Part shown: piece after piece, positions 54,093 to 64,000 of the stretch
How positions within the stretch are numbered: position 1 is the first letter of the stretch
How the letters are laid out: each line of letters starts with the position of its first letter
Assembly: GCA_023920165.1 (NCBI GenBank)
Contig: CP089276.1
Span: 1,922,001-1,986,000 of the forward strand
Direction of reading: 5' to 3'
Source: Curvularia clavata
Taxonomy: Eukaryota
Length of the DNA stretch: 64,000 nt
Translations under genes and position numbers: made by a program
Notes under the pieces: model-generated
What the model saw: only the letters and a program-made list of their open reading frames with translations
What the model was told of the DNA's origin: nothing
Databases searched by the model: none

Positions 54093-55772
54093 TCACAAGC
54101 TCGACTTACAGCGAAGCTCAGCAAACTCTTCCTCTTCTTGTCGTACATTCTGCCACGTATCAGCAAGCCGCCACAGCTTGTTCATCCCAATATCCTCCAA
54201 CATCGCGCCTCTCCCGTTACGATATACGGCATCGTACTGCTCTTCGTCGACTTCCGTCATGCCATTACTACCAAACACTGTAAGCTTACCGCTCTTGGCC
54301 CATCCCTCACCATTAATATATCGGATGAATTGATCCTGCATTGCTCGCGCAACCTCTCGAGTGTGCTTATCGAGATGCTCTTCAAAGTTATTCAATAGGA
54401 GCACAACGTCCAGCTCGTGAGAAGCAAGGCCTTTGAATGGGCCATCGATAGGATTGGGAACATGGAAGTGATACCGTGAAGCGCGTTTCGGTGGAGAGCT
54501 AGCTTTCCAGCCCCTGTAGGCTACCAATGCTGGCAAGTAGAAGCGCAATTCGCTCACCAGCTCGAGTAAGCGTTCACTCTCTTGTTTCTTGGGTGAAGGA
54601 CCGTCTAAACTGTATGCAGCTAGCAGCCTTTGCGATTCGGATGCCGTGAGGTACTTCACACATGCTGCTCTGAGTCGGTCCAGCACACCGGGTGGATCGA
54701 GAACCCTAGTCTTCAGAACAAGCCCATCATGTGCTGTATCTCCTATGACGAACTCTTTGCACCAAGAAGGCTTGTGTACTACGCTCTCCCCATCATTCAA
54801 GGAATCGAGGGAGACCTGCTCCGTCAGAAACTCATTGTCGACAGTCGCAGTAAAATACTGGGCTAGTGGCAGCTTCTGAGCAAGCTCTTCAGCATCGATA
54901 TCTAGCAGCGCTCTCTTCCTGCTATCAGCATCCCCCCTATCCAGCTTCAAATACGTCGACTGGTCCTCCAGCATCTTTTGCTGCCACCATTTATTCCGCC
55001 ATTTCCGCAGTGTCGCCTCACCGCTCATGACAACCACTCTTTCAAACAACCCTCCTTCTCCAGCAACATTAGCACAAAGCAACGTTGAGAGCGATATCCC
55101 ACCCGCGGACTCCCCCGCAGCTGTGATATTATCCGGATCGCCGCCAAAACCTGCAATGTGCCGCTTGATCCATCGGAATGCCTGCACCTGATCTTTGTAC
55201 CCCATATTACCAACAGATCCAATATCTTCGCCAGCCAAGAAGCCAAAGATGTTGACGCGATAATGTATACCCACCCCAATCACATGTTTCCCGGTTTCAA
55301 TGCTGCGTTCCACAAATCGCCGCATTTGGTACTGCGGCCAGTTATTGGATCCCATGCTAAGGCCTCCGCCGTGGACCCATACGAAGACTGGCAGTTGACG
55401 CCCTGTTGTCGTTCCGGCACCCACAACAGACCTGGGTACCGTGACATTCAACTGGAGACATTCGAATTCGTCCATTTTCTCTGTTGGGCCTTGGCCTTCC
55501 GAGCACTCGAGGACCGCGTCGCCAGTCAGGGCCAGATCCCAGGCCTGTGCTCCGCGGTGCTGGGGACATGATGGGCCAAAGTGAGTGGCGTCAACCACGC
55601 CATCCGGTCCTTCTTTCAGCAGGTCATGGTTGGGTTTTGGGTCTTGGTATCTTCCTGGTATGCATGCGTATTTAAGGTTTCGAAACTCGATGGTTGATGG
55701 GGAGAGCTTTCCGCGGAGGGTTTGCTTCAGGGTGGCATGGCGAAGTTCATCTGGCTTTGAGGACATTGTCAT
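54093..55772 (-). CDS. Type-B carboxylesterase (COesterase family), no evident signal peptide
   Basis: ECLQLNV, LPVFVWVHGGG, FGGDPDNITAAGESAGG (catalytic Ser) and SHELDV (His). Confidence 0.88.
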   Translation of the reverse strand: MTMSSKPDELRHATLKQTLRGKLSPSTIEFRNLKYACIPGRYQDPKPNHDLLKEGPDGVVDATHFGPSCPQHRGAQAWDLALTGDAVLECSEGQGPTEKMDEFECLQLNVTVPRSVVGAGTTTGRQLPVFVWVHGGGLSMGSNNWPQYQMRRFVERSIETGKHVIGVGIHYRVNIFGFLAGEDIGSVGNMGYKDQVQAFRWIKRHIAGFGGDPDNITAAGESAGGISLSTLLCANVAGEGGLFERVVVMSGEATLRKWRNKWWQQKMLEDQSTYLKLDRGDADSRKRALLDIDAEELAQKLPLAQYFTATVDNEFLTEQVSLDSLNDGESVVHKPSWCKEFVIGDTAHDGLVLKTRVLDPPGVLDRLRAACVKYLTASESQRLLAAYSLDGPSPKKQESERLLELVSELRFYLPALVAYRGWKASSPPKRASRYHFHVPNPIDGPFKGLASHELDVVLLLNNFEEHLDKHTREVARAMQDQFIRYINGEGWAKSGKLTVFGSNGMTEVDEEQYDAVYRNGRGAMLEDIGMNKLWRLADTWQNVRQEEEEFAELRCKSSL

Positions 55773-57295
55773 TGTGGAGATGCGCGCATACTACTTGGAA
55801 ACGTTTCGAAGGAGATATTTTGTATTTGCAGGATACTTTATTATTAACATTGTAGTGGTCCGCCTTACATGGCTTCCCCGGAGTGACGAATAGAGATGTG
55901 GGGTGATGTGGGGCTTATACCTCGGTAGTGGCAGTGAAGCCATCGAACTGGTCGTAGTAGACGGTTACATGGCTGCTTTTGAATTAGGTGTCTTCGTGAA
56001 TTATCTAAAAGATGGGGCAGTATATTAGATCAAACCATGTTCTGAACCAGTCGATACACTAAAGGACACTAACACTGTAGACTAGGCATGTCACTTTACC
56101 CTGGTATCACCGTAGTTTCAACTGCGTTCACTCAGCCCCATTTGTAAGAACACTAGAAGGCGTGGAAAAACTTTTTAACGGGGTTTTCTCCATCCTTGTT
56201 CGATATTTGGCCTTCGACGAAGAGCTCTGCTTGACAGTTAGAAGCTGAGTGAAAAGAAGACGAGCTAAATAAAAACCCACCCAGAGATCTCACAACAAGG
56301 CCAATATCTTGATGATATCTGCTTAGTTGGAATGCATCGATCTTGCATCCAAGGTTCTTTGTGGAGGCGTCGTAATTGTCACTTCACCCTGTGCATGTGT
56401 TATAGTGCACAGTATTCATTATTGGAATGACTATGGTAGGGGTAGCACATGGGCCACAAGGAAGGGCGAGTTTGCGCTCCATTCTCCGCTGCAACAGCTT
56501 GTAAACTAGTTTCGCATGCACAGAGCTCTAGAACCCATCATTGCACCGAGCCCTTGCTCATGTCTTCATCCACTCACTGCATCACGGCCTAACACCGTCA
56601 AATCAATCGTAACGCTAGGTTCGGCCCGACGGGACTCAGCTCGAAGTTGTTATCTTTCGGCTTCACAGGCTTATCTTCTAGAGGAACAAGCGTAACCAGT
56701 TCGAGCTGTGGTAGCCGAGAATGGGGCTGAAAGTGCGGGGCTAACTATGTACGCTCCATATAAATGTATCGAGTAACTTCTATAGGTAAATGTGGCGGCC
56801 AGTAGCATCTAGACATGTTGCCTCATGTACGCTGAAAGCACTCGCATAGTCCGCGGATACTGTGCACCACCTCTACTCTTGGTACCTCTACCGATGCGCC
56901 TGCTCAGCCTCGTGCCCTGTATCTTATGTAGTGTTACCATGCCTATCACTGAGGCGTACTTCCCATCGTATAATTGGGGCGGATGTTGAAGCTTTCTGTG
57001 TGGTAAGAGATCCCTGTGGTGTGGTTGGCGAATTGAAGCTGATATATTTTCAGCTCCTGCCTGCCTAATGCAATGCGAGACGGGCATAGCCTGATCCAGT
57101 TCTGTTAGTATGAGCTTACCACAACTTGTAGTAGTTTGATGTACCTTGGCGTGCTTGGAAGCCAAGGTATGGAAGACAGCTGAAAAGAAGAGCAATCCAT
57201 TAAACTTATCAGGGTCGATGCTGAGTCCTCTTCTTCTCTAATTTCACAGCTTGAGTCTATGCATAGAGACCAATCTCTTCCATTCTTGAGTCATA

Positions 57296-59411: not shown

Positions 59412-60953
59412 CTAAGCCCTGCTTCCACCATCAATATCCTTACTCTTTCGGCCCTCACTACTATCATCACTTTCCGTGTCGCTTAATAAACCATCCCAAG
59501 CCTCGTCTTCCATATTATCCGCCTCACTCTCTCTTCCAGCTCCTTCCTCCACTTTGACGTTCACAAATAATATCCACAACCCGATATCGTAGATGATCCT
59601 GCACGTACCAGACGCCAGGAAAGCAACCCAGAAGTTGTCACTGCCGGCAAGGAGACCAGTGATTGACGGGCCCACGCTCATAGCCAGAGTTCGTACCATA
59701 CTCGTGATACCCATCGCACCTGTGCGCTCCTCCGGCTTGACGACTGCGGCAATGAAGGCTGTGCGTGGGGCTTGATCCATACTATTGAGGGCGGCTCGGA
59801 AGAGCATCAGCCCGATTGTCCACCCGGCATGCGATGGCAAAGGAATAAAAGCGATTGACAACGACGAAGGAAGATGCGTAAAAACCATAGTGTTGATGAG
59901 GCCGATGCGTTTAGCTAAAGGTCCAGCAAAAATAGCGCCGACTGCGCAAAGGAATTGCGAAGCCGAGGTGATATCTCCGAGCGTAGCCTTGGAGACGCCA
60001 AACTTCCGGTCGACATAGTAGTTCATTAGTGAGTATGGTGTCATTCCATCTGACAGGCTATCGACGGCGAGAAGTATCCAGAGCTTGTACAAGATTGATC
60101 GTGTAGTCTTCGAAATTTGACTGAAATAGCTTTGTTTCTTCGGCGATTGTGTGACTCGAAGATTTTCCCTTCTTCTTGAGGGCTCACCGTCTTGATCAAA
60201 CCCATCGGTCGTGCTCGGTGTCATGGCTTCGAGAAGCACTTCTTCCTCCTCTCCATCACCACTGCCTCTCCGCTCTTTCATTTCGGCACGTTTCTCGCCA
60301 GCCGACTCACATCTGGCACTCAATCCCAGGCATAGTATACATCCAAGTATACCAAAGGCTGCGTATCCCCAGAACAAGGCATGGTATGCCTTGGTAGCAT
60401 TTCCGCTACTCTTCTCAAGTGCGTGCACTATTCTTCCTGCGACCTCCGCTCCTATAGCTCCAGCCATCGTGGTCGCTGTGACGTACCACGACAGAACGTC
60501 ACTTCTTGTCTTCTCGTCAGTCAAGCCACTCAAAATACTCTCCTCGACTGCCCTGAATGGCCCACAGTCGGCTCCGGTAACAGAAATGATGCCAAATACT
60601 GCTGCAATCAAGAGGATCCAGAAGTTTTCGGAAATTGCAAATGCCACACCTGAACAAGCCATCATCACGCTACCCATGAACAGAATCTTTCTCCTTCCAA
60701 GTTTATCCGCCACCAGGGTAAGTAGCAAGGAGAGCAAGACATCTCCCAGTAGTGTGAGAGTCATGAATACTCCGATTCTCGAATCGGGAAATTTGAGAGA
60801 CGCGAAGAACAAGGCCAAAACGAGACTAGGGATTCCGGCAGTAAACATGCGCAAGGAACGCAGTGTGATAATGATGTAAGCATCCCGTCCGGTTGCGTTG
60901 AGCGATTGTACACCGAGGAAGCCGGCAATTCGCGATACAAACATGGGAGCCAT
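59412..60953 (-). CDS. Major facilitator superfamily transporter
   Basis: About 12 hydrophobic segments; MFS motif A ADKLGRRK; RIGLINTMVFTHLPS and MDQAPR.AF. Confidence 0.88.
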   Translation of the reverse strand: MAPMFVSRIAGFLGVQSLNATGRDAYIIITLRSLRMFTAGIPSLVLALFFASLKFPDSRIGVFMTLTLLGDVLLSLLLTLVADKLGRRKILFMGSVMMACSGVAFAISENFWILLIAAVFGIISVTGADCGPFRAVEESILSGLTDEKTRSDVLSWYVTATTMAGAIGAEVAGRIVHALEKSSGNATKAYHALFWGYAAFGILGCILCLGLSARCESAGEKRAEMKERRGSGDGEEEEVLLEAMTPSTTDGFDQDGEPSRRRENLRVTQSPKKQSYFSQISKTTRSILYKLWILLAVDSLSDGMTPYSLMNYYVDRKFGVSKATLGDITSASQFLCAVGAIFAGPLAKRIGLINTMVFTHLPSSLSIAFIPLPSHAGWTIGLMLFRAALNSMDQAPRTAFIAAVVKPEERTGAMGITSMVRTLAMSVGPSITGLLAGSDNFWVAFLASGTCRIIYDIGLWILFVNVKVEEGAGRESEADNMEDEAWDGLLSDTESDDSSEGRKSKDIDGGSRA

Positions 60954-61880
60954 GTTGGTGATGCTTGACAGCAGGTTGCTGGTGGACAAATGCGGTTAAA
61001 GTACTCGCAACCAACGGAGATCTGGTTCCAGTGGTCACGAGGGGTTGGCGAGAGAAGATGGAGAAGAAGAAGAGAATTCCGGCCTACGAGAGGTAGGTGA
61101 TTGCCTAGACGTTAAACCCGTCCCGGGTTTAAGGTCAGTCGTGATTGGGCTTTGTGACTCACCATGGCGTGCATGGGAAGCTCCATCCAACAGCTTCTAG
61201 ATCTCGGTCACAGAAATAGGCACCGGCAACCTTGCCGATGTTCGCTGCTGTTATGTTGCTGCGCGGCCGAGACACCGAATGTACAATCTAAACGAGAATG
61301 TGGGGGTGGGGTACGTCATAGTCGACATCTTCGCTCCCGTGCATATCTTGACCACTCTCTCTCCATCCTCAAAACCACTTTAGTATTCACATATTTTGTA
61401 CACAAGAGGACACTGAGGTGTCCGCTATACTTCAAATGTTTCTCCTATGTGACTAACACCGATCTATTCTGCTTGGCGATCACATGTAACCAACTTTTTT
61501 GCCATGCCAGGCAACACCACCAGATTCTGGAACTGCGTGCATTCACCTCGAACAACGCATGAATAAAGCGGATATTGTTACAGTACCGTTCAAAACTGCC
61601 CTCACCCTTTGCGCAAGCGACAATATTGTTGGGTCCCTGTTAGTCTAGGAAATCCTTGCTAATTCCAACTAATCGCGGAGTACTGGGACCTACTAGCTCT
61701 AAATAAGCTAGCTTGCAATCAGGAGGCACTCTTATATGTAGAATAGGTGCAATGCAGTGCTGTACGCATCGTAGTCGATATAAAGTTACACCATATTCAT
61801 TGATGTTTGCTGACCTGTTTATGCTTTCTATAGTTCCTCCCGTATGTGTCCTCAAGCGTACACTTTAGATCTAGGTCTCC

Positions 61881-62256
61881 TCACTCCGCTTCCCACCATT
61901 CTAGGATTGCCAAAGAAGACTTAAGATTAAAATGACCAGCTTTTAGCACTCGCTGACACGGCTGTACACATTTTCGTACTAAGACTATAGCCTCTACATT
62001 CCGGCTTTATATTTTCTACACAAAGGCTAGGTTAGCAATATTAGTTGGCGTGGCAGGATAGTCTGCTCTGAGCTTTGTATTAAAAACCACTACTATTTGC
62101 GCGGATAGGTCGTTAGCATTGTTGTATCGCCAATAGTGCCTATGTATCAATACTAGATTAAGCATGTTTGTCATTGGGATAATCGGCTCTAAGCTTCGTC
62201 TTACTTGTCTCTATTATCTACACAAATAGCTTCTTAGCGTTGTTCCACCGCCCTTG
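61881..62256 (-). pseudogene. Degenerate C-terminal TPR-repeat remnant of an NLR (NB-ARC/NACHT-TPR type)
   Basis: Manual translation: QGRWNNAKKLFV*IIETSKTKLRADYP / frameshift / MTNMLNL..RYNNANDLSAQIVVVFNTKLRADYPATPTNIANLAFV*KI*SRNVEAIVLVRKCVQPCQRVLKAGHFNLKSSLAILEWWEAE*. This matches the fungal NLR TPR consensus QGRW.EAE.L.VQVMET.K.KLGADHP.TL.SMANLA. Confidence 0.85.
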
Positions 62257-62326
62257 GCCCAAAGACTACATCGAGCAGCCGCTCCAGTACTGTGGCACGT
62301 GGCCTCTACTATAGCTCTATACGTAC

Positions 62327-63433
62327 TTATCTCCTCCCGAACACAGCCCCGTGAACTCCACCGTTGATGACTCCAGCTTGTTGGCCCGAGTTCTGACTAC
62401 CAAATGTAACGTTCATTGCATGCGTTGCAGGTTGATGCGAAGACACATTCGCACTTTTCTCCCGGTCTTCCACTTGTACAGCAGGAATTGTTGACAACAG
62501 CCCCTTCGCATACGCAGCGGCAGTTGCCGCCGCATAGTTCTGCCAACCCTTGTTCTTGTGAGAGTCTGCATAGTCACAGATGCCTCGGATGACCACACAC
62601 GGGTGTTCTTCCATAACACCGGCAGCTTCCATCTCAAAGCAGATTGCTTCATGCTCGAGATGGACCCTGTTGCGTTCCACGGCAGATATCTGTAGCTGAT
62701 TGCTCGAGGCGATATTGCCAAAATGGACAGACGGCTCATCAGTCGGTCGTGTGGCAGACTCCCCGCGTTCAAAACGCGAAATAGTGTAGTCTGCGTCGCA
62801 GCAATCTTTGCAATCGTCAAGCTCAGTGCCTTGGTGCTGGTAGCCGTCCTCGAAGAGCCTGTCGCGAATGGGGCCTGGGTCATCGTACTGGCCTTGTCGC
62901 TTCTCGTCGAGCTTAAGACGCATCTGCTTCAACGTATCGCAGATATTAATCTTAGACCACCCTTCCGATCGAAAATTGTTAACAGCGACCAGAAGATCAC
63001 CAGGAACGCCGTTAGTGTGTCCACGAAACTTGAGGCATCCTTGACCCTGCCAAGCGCCCTTGTCGTATTGCAACACCCCACCGTGGTTACCCCGCGGATA
63101 ACTGACGACTACGTCTCCTAGCACAATCTCCGAGGCAGCCCCAGCTGGTCCATAGCGAGGCACGCCGCCAGCGATACCGACGAGGAAGAAGTACTTAATA
63201 TTTGGAAATCCATCGCGCATTTTCTCAGCAAGAATTGCGGCTTGGCTGAGCCCGATTCGCCGCTGCACCCCCATGACGACCTTGTGCACTCCGATTCGGC
63301 CGCCTAAATAGAAAACGCCCTTGTGTTGGACCTCGTCCTGGGGATACTCCTCATCAAACACAAGTCGTGCAGCTTCCTTTTCTAAAGGCAAGGGGGAGAT
63401 CCACCCGATGGTGAAGTGATGATTCGAGGCCAT
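62327..63433 (-). CDS. PNP_UDP_1 (purine/uridine phosphorylase, Pfs-like) domain protein with C-terminal putative amyloid signalling motif
   Basis: FTIGWISPLPLE, LVGIAGGVP, IVLGDVVVS, VHFGNIAS.N, CFEMEAAG and IRGICDYADSHKNKGWQNYAAATAAAYAK; tail NVTFGSQNSGQQAGVINGGVHGAVFGRR*. Confidence 0.92.
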   Translation of the reverse strand: MASNHHFTIGWISPLPLEKEAARLVFDEEYPQDEVQHKGVFYLGGRIGVHKVVMGVQRRIGLSQAAILAEKMRDGFPNIKYFFLVGIAGGVPRYGPAGAASEIVLGDVVVSYPRGNHGGVLQYDKGAWQGQGCLKFRGHTNGVPGDLLVAVNNFRSEGWSKINICDTLKQMRLKLDEKRQGQYDDPGPIRDRLFEDGYQHQGTELDDCKDCCDADYTISRFERGESATRPTDEPSVHFGNIASSNQLQISAVERNRVHLEHEAICFEMEAAGVMEEHPCVVIRGICDYADSHKNKGWQNYAAATAAAYAKGLLSTIPAVQVEDREKSANVSSHQPATHAMNVTFGSQNSGQQAGVINGGVHGAVFGRR

Positions 63434-63753
63434 GCTGCAAAAAGAAAAATCTCAATGATGGCTCCAAAGACGGTTGCAAAACTTGGGTGTTTGTGGTAGG
63501 TAGGAGATGTAAGAAAGTTATAGGCAGCAGTGCAGATAAAGAGCAGCGCTCAGCCTTGTCACTCAGCCTCGTCGCAGCCATCAATCAGGTTTTTCGTGAC
63601 AAGCTTGGCCTTTGATCATGATCAACGATTTGTGGAAATAACGGCATATGCTCATAAACAGCGTTAGGATTAGTGAATCGAGCAAGCTAGATAGCACTGT
63701 ATCTACATTTTCCGCCCACTAATTTACTACTAGACGATATCACGCTTGTTGCA

Positions 63754-63963
63754 CTATCGCACACTAGAGAATACACCAGTTTTCAACTTCGAGAGAGTTA
63801 TACGCCTAGCCCAACGATTCTTCCACAGCCACATAACAACCATCACAACGGCCATAGGGGCTGTGAAGGCCCAGTAAACCCAGAAATGGTGTGACACAGT
63901 AAACGACGAACTTCCTATGTCTCCACTGGGCTCAAAAGAAAAGAAGCTCATCCCAAAAACCGT
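63754..63963 (-). CDS. Last exon of a CorA-like transmembrane-domain protein (gene extends beyond the window)
   Basis: TVFGMSFF..FTVSHHFWVYWAFTAPMAVVMVVMW resembles the GM(N/S)-loop plus final TM helix of fungal CorA-like domains; preceded by a GCTAAT branch site and AAG acceptor. Confidence 0.7.
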   Translation of the reverse strand, partial: TVFGMSFFSFEPSGDIGSSSFTVSHHFWVYWAFTAPMAVVMVVMWLWKNRWARRITLSKLKTGVFSSVR

Positions 63964-64000
63964 CTTCAATCCAGCCATTAGCCAGGTATTGTATCAAATT

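Follow-up and report, generated by a model that had tools for sequence, protein, structure and literature searches.

The stretch of DNA analysed here (hereafter the window, 64,000 nucleotides) covers positions 1922001-1986000 of contig CP089276.1 of the Curvularia clavata assembly NCBI GenBank GCA_023920165.1 (G000:C3:1922001-1986000). At its end three units follow each other on the minus strand: the 3' end of a CorA-like pseudogene (63754..64000, comprising the last exon at 63993-63754 and part of the last intron), an intact, single-exon gene encoding a PNP_UDP effector of 368 aa (P0001; 62327..63433), and a TPR remnant of an NB-ARC-TPR NLR (61883..62256), identified by its identity to the 3' end of an intact NLR. 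The last exon of the CorA-like gene is separated from the PNP ORF by 320 bp and the PNP gene from the TPR remnant by 70 bp. A preliminary description of the locus had reported these three units with gaps of ~320 and ~70 bp, and ORFs, Pfam matches and alignments find them as claimed. A fourth gene lies wholly beyond the window on the plus strand, a PP-NB-ARC-TPR NLR termed NLR1 (window-extended 65252-68119; G000:C3:1987252-1990119; L009 4253-7120), which was recognised by its open frame, Pfam domains and motif. Further into the window, an MFS transporter (59412-60995, Pfam) is an ordinary neighbour, absent near the cassette in 22 related metagenome loci. The same absence was noted for a carboxylesterase-like ORF, seen by eye at 54093-55790.

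The PNP ORF (63433-62327) matches Pfam PF01048 (PNP_UDP_1) with an E-value of 4.4e-7 and runs into a G/N/Q-rich tail, so that the effector had rightly been called intact. The tail carries a PP-type amyloid signalling motif, MNVTFGSQNSGQQAGVINGGVHGAVFGRR, at 62330..62416 on the minus strand, recognised by its match to the NLR head. Compared with the related locus L084, PNP has a dS of 0.27 and a dN/dS of 0.16, and dN/dS is 0.09-0.11 against L089 and L090, values that indicate purifying selection. RNA contigs of runs X1, X4 and X22, from three studies, cover the ORF end to end; the RNA evidence comes from 4 of 24 listed runs, the fourth being X13, which was left out as it held only pieces of 150-210 bp, and contigs give neither strand nor level. 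Selection and expression of the PNP gene had both been proposed as checks, and the gene is found to be conserved by selection and transcribed. Among the top 84 matches of a search that spanned proteins of 202-644 aa, 69 relatives measure 340-420 aa and 61 of these have a motif-like C-terminal tail, tail labels being rough pattern calls with some errors. The closest relatives are not all-in-one NLRs, and the motif is kept in PNP homologues. Those relatives that are named belong mostly to what we take to be the order Pleosporales. Different tail types are found on near-identical enzymes, as in P0015, which is 93% identical over 81% of the query and has another tail type. The putative catalytic residues E18, E267-M268-E269, R283 and D287 (P0008 numbering), for which the catalytic role is our assumption, are invariant in all 30 aligned PNPs, and the EME/R/D stretch aligns weakly to MTA/SAH nucleosidases (PDB sequence search, best E 0.13). 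A predicted PNP fold with conserved putative nucleosidase residues is thus present, as in Cap17-like ATP nucleosidases. The stop codon and ~25 bp beyond it are common to L084, where homology to that locus ends. Judged by these comparisons, PNP is a stand-alone gene type. A second PNP-motif gene, with 73% aa identity, is located elsewhere in the genome (L011 5082-10000; G000:C2:677081 onward). Behind it, in the same orientation, lies a motif-NACHT-WD40 NLR whose motif is of a shorter subtype; this 10-kb locus gave no CorA-like match.

NLR1 begins 1,252 bp beyond the window, at a distance of 1.8 kb from where PNP starts, and its own start codon lies head to head with that of the CorA-like gene at a distance of 229 bp. 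It encodes 921 aa in an intact open frame, with Pfam matches to NB-ARC and TPR_10/12 (eight TPR_10 stretches) and with the Walker A motif lying across an intron. Both introns (window-extended 65346-65399 and 65551-65598) are skipped in RNA contigs of X1, X4 and X22, which come from three studies, showing that they are spliced. The NB-ARC domain has a dN/dS of 0.14 against L084, and five of the six differences seen in RNA runs are synonymous. The protein has no effector domain but an N-terminal motif, and it is encoded next to the effector. This NLR head, MASATSFGDANAGLQAGIINGPVSAAFQ, matches the PNP tail with a score of 63, which none of 300 shuffles reached, and the 16 best of 40,284 six-frame windows, taken from the 64-kb window and 26 own-genome loci, all come from motif-bearing effector or NLR genes. 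NLR1 and PNP are intact, transcribed and motif-matched, so that the proposal of an NLR-effector immune locus is borne out. Two other intact NLR heads of the genome, on C1 and C4, score 54-55 against the PNP tail, NLR1 being the best of the three, and the PNP tail matches that of a HeLo-like effector on C1; the pairing of tail and head need not be exclusive. NLR1 has a dS of 1.3-1.5 against L084, far above that of PNP and of the CorA-like gene (0.33). By this difference the receptor was swapped on the cassette, and NLR1 may be a later partner of PNP.

The motif itself departs from the PP consensus. The NLR side (NAGLQAGIIN) and the PNP side (NSGQQAGVIN) keep NxGxQxG, with the last N shifted by one compared to NxGxQxGxN, and the PNP motif has a Q where the PP core (G-hydrophobic-Q-hydrophobic-G) normally has a hydrophobic residue. 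Canonical PP motifs (GxQxGxNxG) were seen near NB-ARC loci elsewhere in the genome (L060 and L061; C5 ~867 kb and C7 ~954 kb). In a score matrix, effector tails and NLR heads change type together across loci: the tail/head pair of L087 scores 53 and its tail scores 20-31 with other heads, and the effector tails of C2 and L090 score best with NACHT-type heads. At L087 (1452-5393), PNP and the downstream NLR share a different motif, which looks HRAM-like to us, a label we presume to fit, and the upstream CorA-like gene is a heavily mutated remnant. Neither the PNP tail nor the head of NLR1 fits the PUASM pattern FxGxGxQxxGxGxF given in the sections of PMC9815663 consulted. In its supplement file 7, the tails of the PNP homologues P0125, P0135 and P0060 are filed as PP/NLR07, and the supplement entries include the PNP homologues PSN62773.1, PSN58704.1 and KZM25280.1 as PP/NLR07 with PF01048. 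Since three homologs are listed in this way, the NLR/PNP pair, as far as its sequences tell, belongs to the known amyloid-linked NLR/PNP_UDP class.

The TPR remnant behind PNP is of a different nature. It measures 374 bp, contains stops and a 5-bp deletion, and retains only the last two TPRs plus the cap at the C-terminus. The preliminary description had seen a destroyed receptor here; the TPR stretch is indeed broken, but it holds neither an NB-ARC domain nor a motif. Changes of the types C>T and G>A outnumber T>C and A>G by 60 to 26, and the TpA/ApT ratio of 1.34 is reached by 3 of 168 window tiles; this decay fits RIP. One RNA contig, from run X1, spans PNP and the remnant. We considered the remnant as a recent copy of NLR1 and rejected this, as its identity to the 3' end of NLR1 over 374 columns is 67%, and that to the NLR of L084 is 68%. 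In four of the 22 metagenome loci (L087, L089, L090 and L094), a close PNP relative is followed by an NLR in the same orientation, and in L089 and L090 both this downstream NLR and the divergent NLR are present and face outward. The two NLRs of L090 are 81-91% alike and those of L089 72-77% in patches, and the downstream NLR (NLR2) of both loci has its own motif-bearing start. In the portion of the PMC9815663 lists covered here, PSN62772.1 and PSN62774.1, entered as motif-bearing on the NLR side, flank the CorA+PNP model PSN62773.1 by accession order. The TPR remnant is therefore probably the leftover of an outward-facing NLR2 that relatives still keep. As the simplest reading, argued from the relatives, we infer that a deletion took most of NLR2, rather than that a fragment was inserted. 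The same outcome as that of the proposed deletion, a truncated gene fused to a TPR end piece, is seen at a locus on C4 (L015 5350-9325 and L016 570-1230; G000:C4 ~4367350-4372230). There, an intact motif-NLR of 1286 aa stands next to a divergent HeLo-like partner that is cut off and joined to the TPR end piece, so that the orphan is the receptor. The flanks of this locus (L015 563-4449 and L016 3249-7953) hold, by eye, HET-NB-ARC-TPR and HET-NACHT-WD40-like genes and appear to be part of a larger NLR cluster.

The CorA-like gene extends beyond the window to window-extended position 65023 (L009 4024-2755). Compared to L084 it has lost 240 bp at extended ~64455 and 141 bp at ~64095, it carries two frameshifting 1-bp deletions and three in-frame stops, and by this alignment it is a pseudogene in this genome. 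The preliminary description had considered its product as a further membrane-acting component, which does not hold for this genome. The pseudogene is still transcribed and spliced; in X1 and X4, contigs run through both deletion points with no additional sequence there. Its dN/dS is 0.27, calculated for in-frame sequence; intact copies have values of 0.16-0.26, which speak for purifying selection, and they have no amyloid motif at the C-terminus. Pfam CorA matched neither the exon within the window nor the locus in a genome scan, and the family assignment of the pseudogene rests on intact relatives. The predicted structure of one of them, P0122 (pLDDT 62.8), has only CorA family members among its top Foldseek matches (best E 7e-6), and the ten best structural matches are all CorA, CmaX, ZntB or Mrs2 proteins, with a Z-score of 15.8 and an rmsd of 8.9 over 293 aligned residues to 5jrw_A in a VIA comparison. 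The model has an alpha-beta-alpha soluble domain, a long stalk helix and two C-terminal membrane helices, which is consistent with the CorA/Mrs2/ZntB architecture. The GMN selectivity loop is present in 5 of the 111 family sequences with a readable loop, in which SMS and STS dominate; the L084 and L089 copies have it. The family is large, with 5,534 CorA-like cluster representatives at E<=0.001, and the Atlas clusters nearest to the protein are mostly from Ascomycota. A literature search found no description of a function for this ascomycete family.

We show here that CorA-like genes recur next to PNP genes. The neighbourhoods of PNP homologues, which the preliminary description had proposed to inspect for linked NLR and CorA-like genes, contain both. 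In 7 of the 22 metagenome loci (L084-L090), a CorA-like gene or its remnant lies just upstream of PNP, and five of them (L084, L085, L086, L089 and L090) have the order NLR/CorA-like/PNP, to which L089 and L090 add the second NLR behind PNP. L084 is near-identical to L085, a single metagenome yielded L086-L088, and several of the other loci among the 22 are too short for a decision. The 30 closest relatives found with the CorA-like part of P0015 include 13 gene models that run into PNP, from 10 named taxa (P0015, P0016, P0023, P0076, P0115, P0125, P0126, P0130, P0134-P0137 and P0143), and one further relative runs into a NACHT domain; five of the 13, query included, were first found via PNP and eight are independent of that choice. 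Membrane helices are often skipped in these models. Since L084, L089 and L090 show a stop codon and a gap between the two genes, the fused models are probably annotation artefacts of two adjacent genes. Within the C. clavata genome, the closest CorA-like paralog (C2:5013097-5014144) is 29-40% identical to P0122, has no stops in the matched pieces and stands opposite a PNP gene ~1 kb away, behind which a NACHT-ANK frame follows (L119 6074-7487 and L120 127-4527; G000:C2:5013000-5019500; head to head). We infer that the PNP and NACHT-ANK frames form one NLR. The genome has 18 CorA-like and 17 PNP loci, and two of the former have a PNP locus within ~1 kb, where 0.05 would be expected; with the focal pair left out, the second own-genome pair gives P ~0.05 at 2 kb and 0.09 at 5 kb. 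The other 16 loci are more than 150 kb from PNP or on a contig without a PNP match. Among 150 distant CorA-like representatives, three carry PNP-NACHT or TPR parts.

The linkage is seen with PNP domains whose identity ranges between 92% and ~40%, with several types of motif, with PNPs that lack a tail, and in both orientations. In a FastTree phylogeny rooted on the C2 PNP, with 1 of 108 sequences dropped for short coverage, CorA-adjacent copies are spread from base to tips, tail-less ones included, the neighbour being known for a minority of tips. Based on these comparisons, the link between CorA-like and PNP genes is real, and, since CorA-adjacent PNPs reach from base to tips and include tail-less ones, it appears to be older than the amyloid tails. 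No match to any of five flanking-gene queries was obtained in the 22 loci, from which we conclude that the cassette moves as a block. The papers and supplements searched contained no description of a fungal CorA/PNP/NLR link. In the accessible rows of supplement file 2 of PMC9815663, at least 13 NLRs are labelled CORA, 12 of them C-terminally and none with a PNP label. An earlier mention of the CorA-like/PNP link may exist, but neither the outward-facing pair of NLRs nor the CorA-like gene as a recurring partner seems to have been described. The link is easily missed, because public gene models fuse the CorA-like gene with PNP and often omit membrane helices.

The best explanation of these observations, to which we assign a probability of about 0.8, is that NLR1 and PNP form a two-gene amyloid unit working inside an older four-gene cassette. 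The ancestral order would be NLR1, pointing left, followed by the CorA-like gene, PNP with its motif and NLR2, all pointing right; the CorA-like gene and NLR2 have decayed here, with NLR1 and PNP retained. By analogy to HET-S/NWD2 and HELLP/PNT1, NLR1 would sense non-self via its TPRs and oligomerise, and its N-terminal motif would then seed amyloid assembly of the PNP tail. Tail assembly would cluster PNP and switch the enzyme on. If the enzyme behaves like Cap17-like PNP domains, clustered PNP would cleave ATP to adenine, and the cell would die or arrest. The CorA-like protein would be an accessory that travels with PNP immune genes, likeliest as a second membrane-acting output or modulator, and we put its having a role in the pathway at about even odds. 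It is dispensable and was lost here.

A simpler view of the CorA-like gene, that it is a mere passenger on a mobile NLR/PNP segment with no role in the pathway, falls only a little short of an even chance. PNP stays intact where the CorA-like gene is dead or missing, as at this locus, at L087 and at the PP-PNP locus on C2, and a segment that moves as a block could carry such a passenger along. The lack of a C-terminal amyloid motif in intact copies, the borderline statistics of the second own-genome pair and the 16 of 18 own-genome copies away from PNP point in the same direction. The breadth of the link, in PNP identity, motif type, tail and orientation, and the purifying selection on intact CorA-like copies argue against a passenger. 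More specifically, this CorA-like clade could be a second-step membrane effector of PNP-based NLR immunity, a proposal made by analogy that we regard as doubtful. An NLR would activate the PNP nucleosidase, either in cis or through amyloid templating, and altered ATP, Mg2+ or a nucleosidase product would open the CorA-like channel. If true, fungi would possess an equivalent of the nucleotide-gated CorA effectors known from bacterial CRISPR defence, and it would travel on a mobile cassette on which the two outward-facing NLRs exchange receptors and amyloid tails. Less probable still is that the CorA-like protein, instead of being a killing output, is a guarded target, decoy or antidote that keeps PNP toxicity in check or that the NLR monitors. 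The head-to-head starts of the CorA-like gene and NLR1 would suit such a relation, and the GMN loop kept in so few sequences fits a changed function, but loss of an antidote is unexpected while PNP and NLR1 stay intact and expressed, as they do here.

The preliminary description had furthermore proposed that the receptor was lost and the effector orphaned, possibly kept because another NLR triggers it in trans. That an NLR once stood downstream agrees with the relatives that have one, but an intact, motif-matched NLR is still linked: annotation beyond position 64000 uncovers it 1.25 kb past the edge, on the opposite strand. The orphaned effector was an artefact of the window edge, and with the start of its cognate NLR at a distance of 1.8 kb from that of PNP, no trans trigger is needed. 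One could still suppose that the deleted downstream NLR was the only cognate receptor of PNP, which would now be trans-triggered by unlinked NLRs or idle. The remnant has the same orientation as PNP and occupies the place of the NLR of relatives, and two unlinked intact NLRs, on C1 and C4, have similar heads, so that additional trans signalling is possible. We nevertheless consider a deleted sole receptor very improbable, because the linked, intact and spliced NLR1 has the best head of the three (63 versus 55 and 54) and because L084 has the same divergent layout without an NLR in the 2 kb behind PNP. The C1 locus (L058 2883-6656; G000:C1:482883-486656) is an intact, divergent pair of a HeLo-like (PF17111) effector and an NB-ARC-TPR NLR; the effector tail is nearly the same as that of PNP and the NLR head is related. 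Cross-talk between this pair and NLR1/PNP is possible. That a single PNP-NTPase-TPR gene once broke up into PNP and the TPR remnant, as all-in-one PNP NLRs (PMC4986451, in the part covered) and the C2 locus might suggest, is hardly credible, because close relatives keep the PNP tail and stop, an ATPase domain is absent at the remnant, and NLR2 of L089 and L090 starts with its own motif; the two-gene view favoured in the preliminary description stands.

The repeated PNP-NLR link of one CorA-like clade offers a testable function for a large ascomycete family. If this protein has a role, fungal amyloid signalosomes would gain a membrane component that lacks the motif, unlike their known effectors, which have it. 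Natural genotypes provide a ready-made comparison, with the CorA-like gene intact in L084 and dead at this locus, and PNP 91% identical between them.

Several known systems resemble the locus in parts. In SAM-AMP type III CRISPR (PMC10600005, as far as covered), a CorA-family membrane protein likewise stands repeatedly beside a nucleotide-processing enzyme in an immune locus; this is an analogy only, as no cyclase or known second messenger is found here and the fungal gene is dispensable. The Cap17-like ATP nucleosidase effectors (10.1101/2023.01.24.525353) also have a PNP domain in an NLR context, and a fungal NLR PNP domain is reported, in the portion of that study consulted, to prefer ATP and to be toxic in E. 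coli; the PNP described here is stand-alone and predicted to be amyloid-triggered. PUASM-linked PNP_UDP pairs, in the sections covered, combine the motif FxGxGxQxxGxGxF with a NACHT-type NLR, whereas the locus has neither and its NLR is of the NB-ARC-TPR type. The PNP_UDP-amyloid/NLR pairs of PMC3321046 and PMC9815663 share the effector class with the present pair. The CorA-like neighbour sets this locus apart from them, as the accessible main texts contain no mention of CorA; two PNP proteins listed in PMC9815663 are CorA+PNP run-together models, on which the parts covered hold no comment. A parallel in gene arrangement is provided by the clusters hellp/pnt1 of Podospora anserina and hellp/sbp/pnt1 of Chaetomium globosum, which, in the accessible part of PMC7885112, likewise place an NB-ARC-TPR NLR adjacent to a separate, motif-matched effector, and the PP clusters described there have the G-x-Q-x-G core in common with this locus. 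Compared to these clusters, the effector here is a PNP_UDP enzyme, the third gene is CorA-like and motif-less where both known effectors carry the motif, and a second NLR flanks the cassette.
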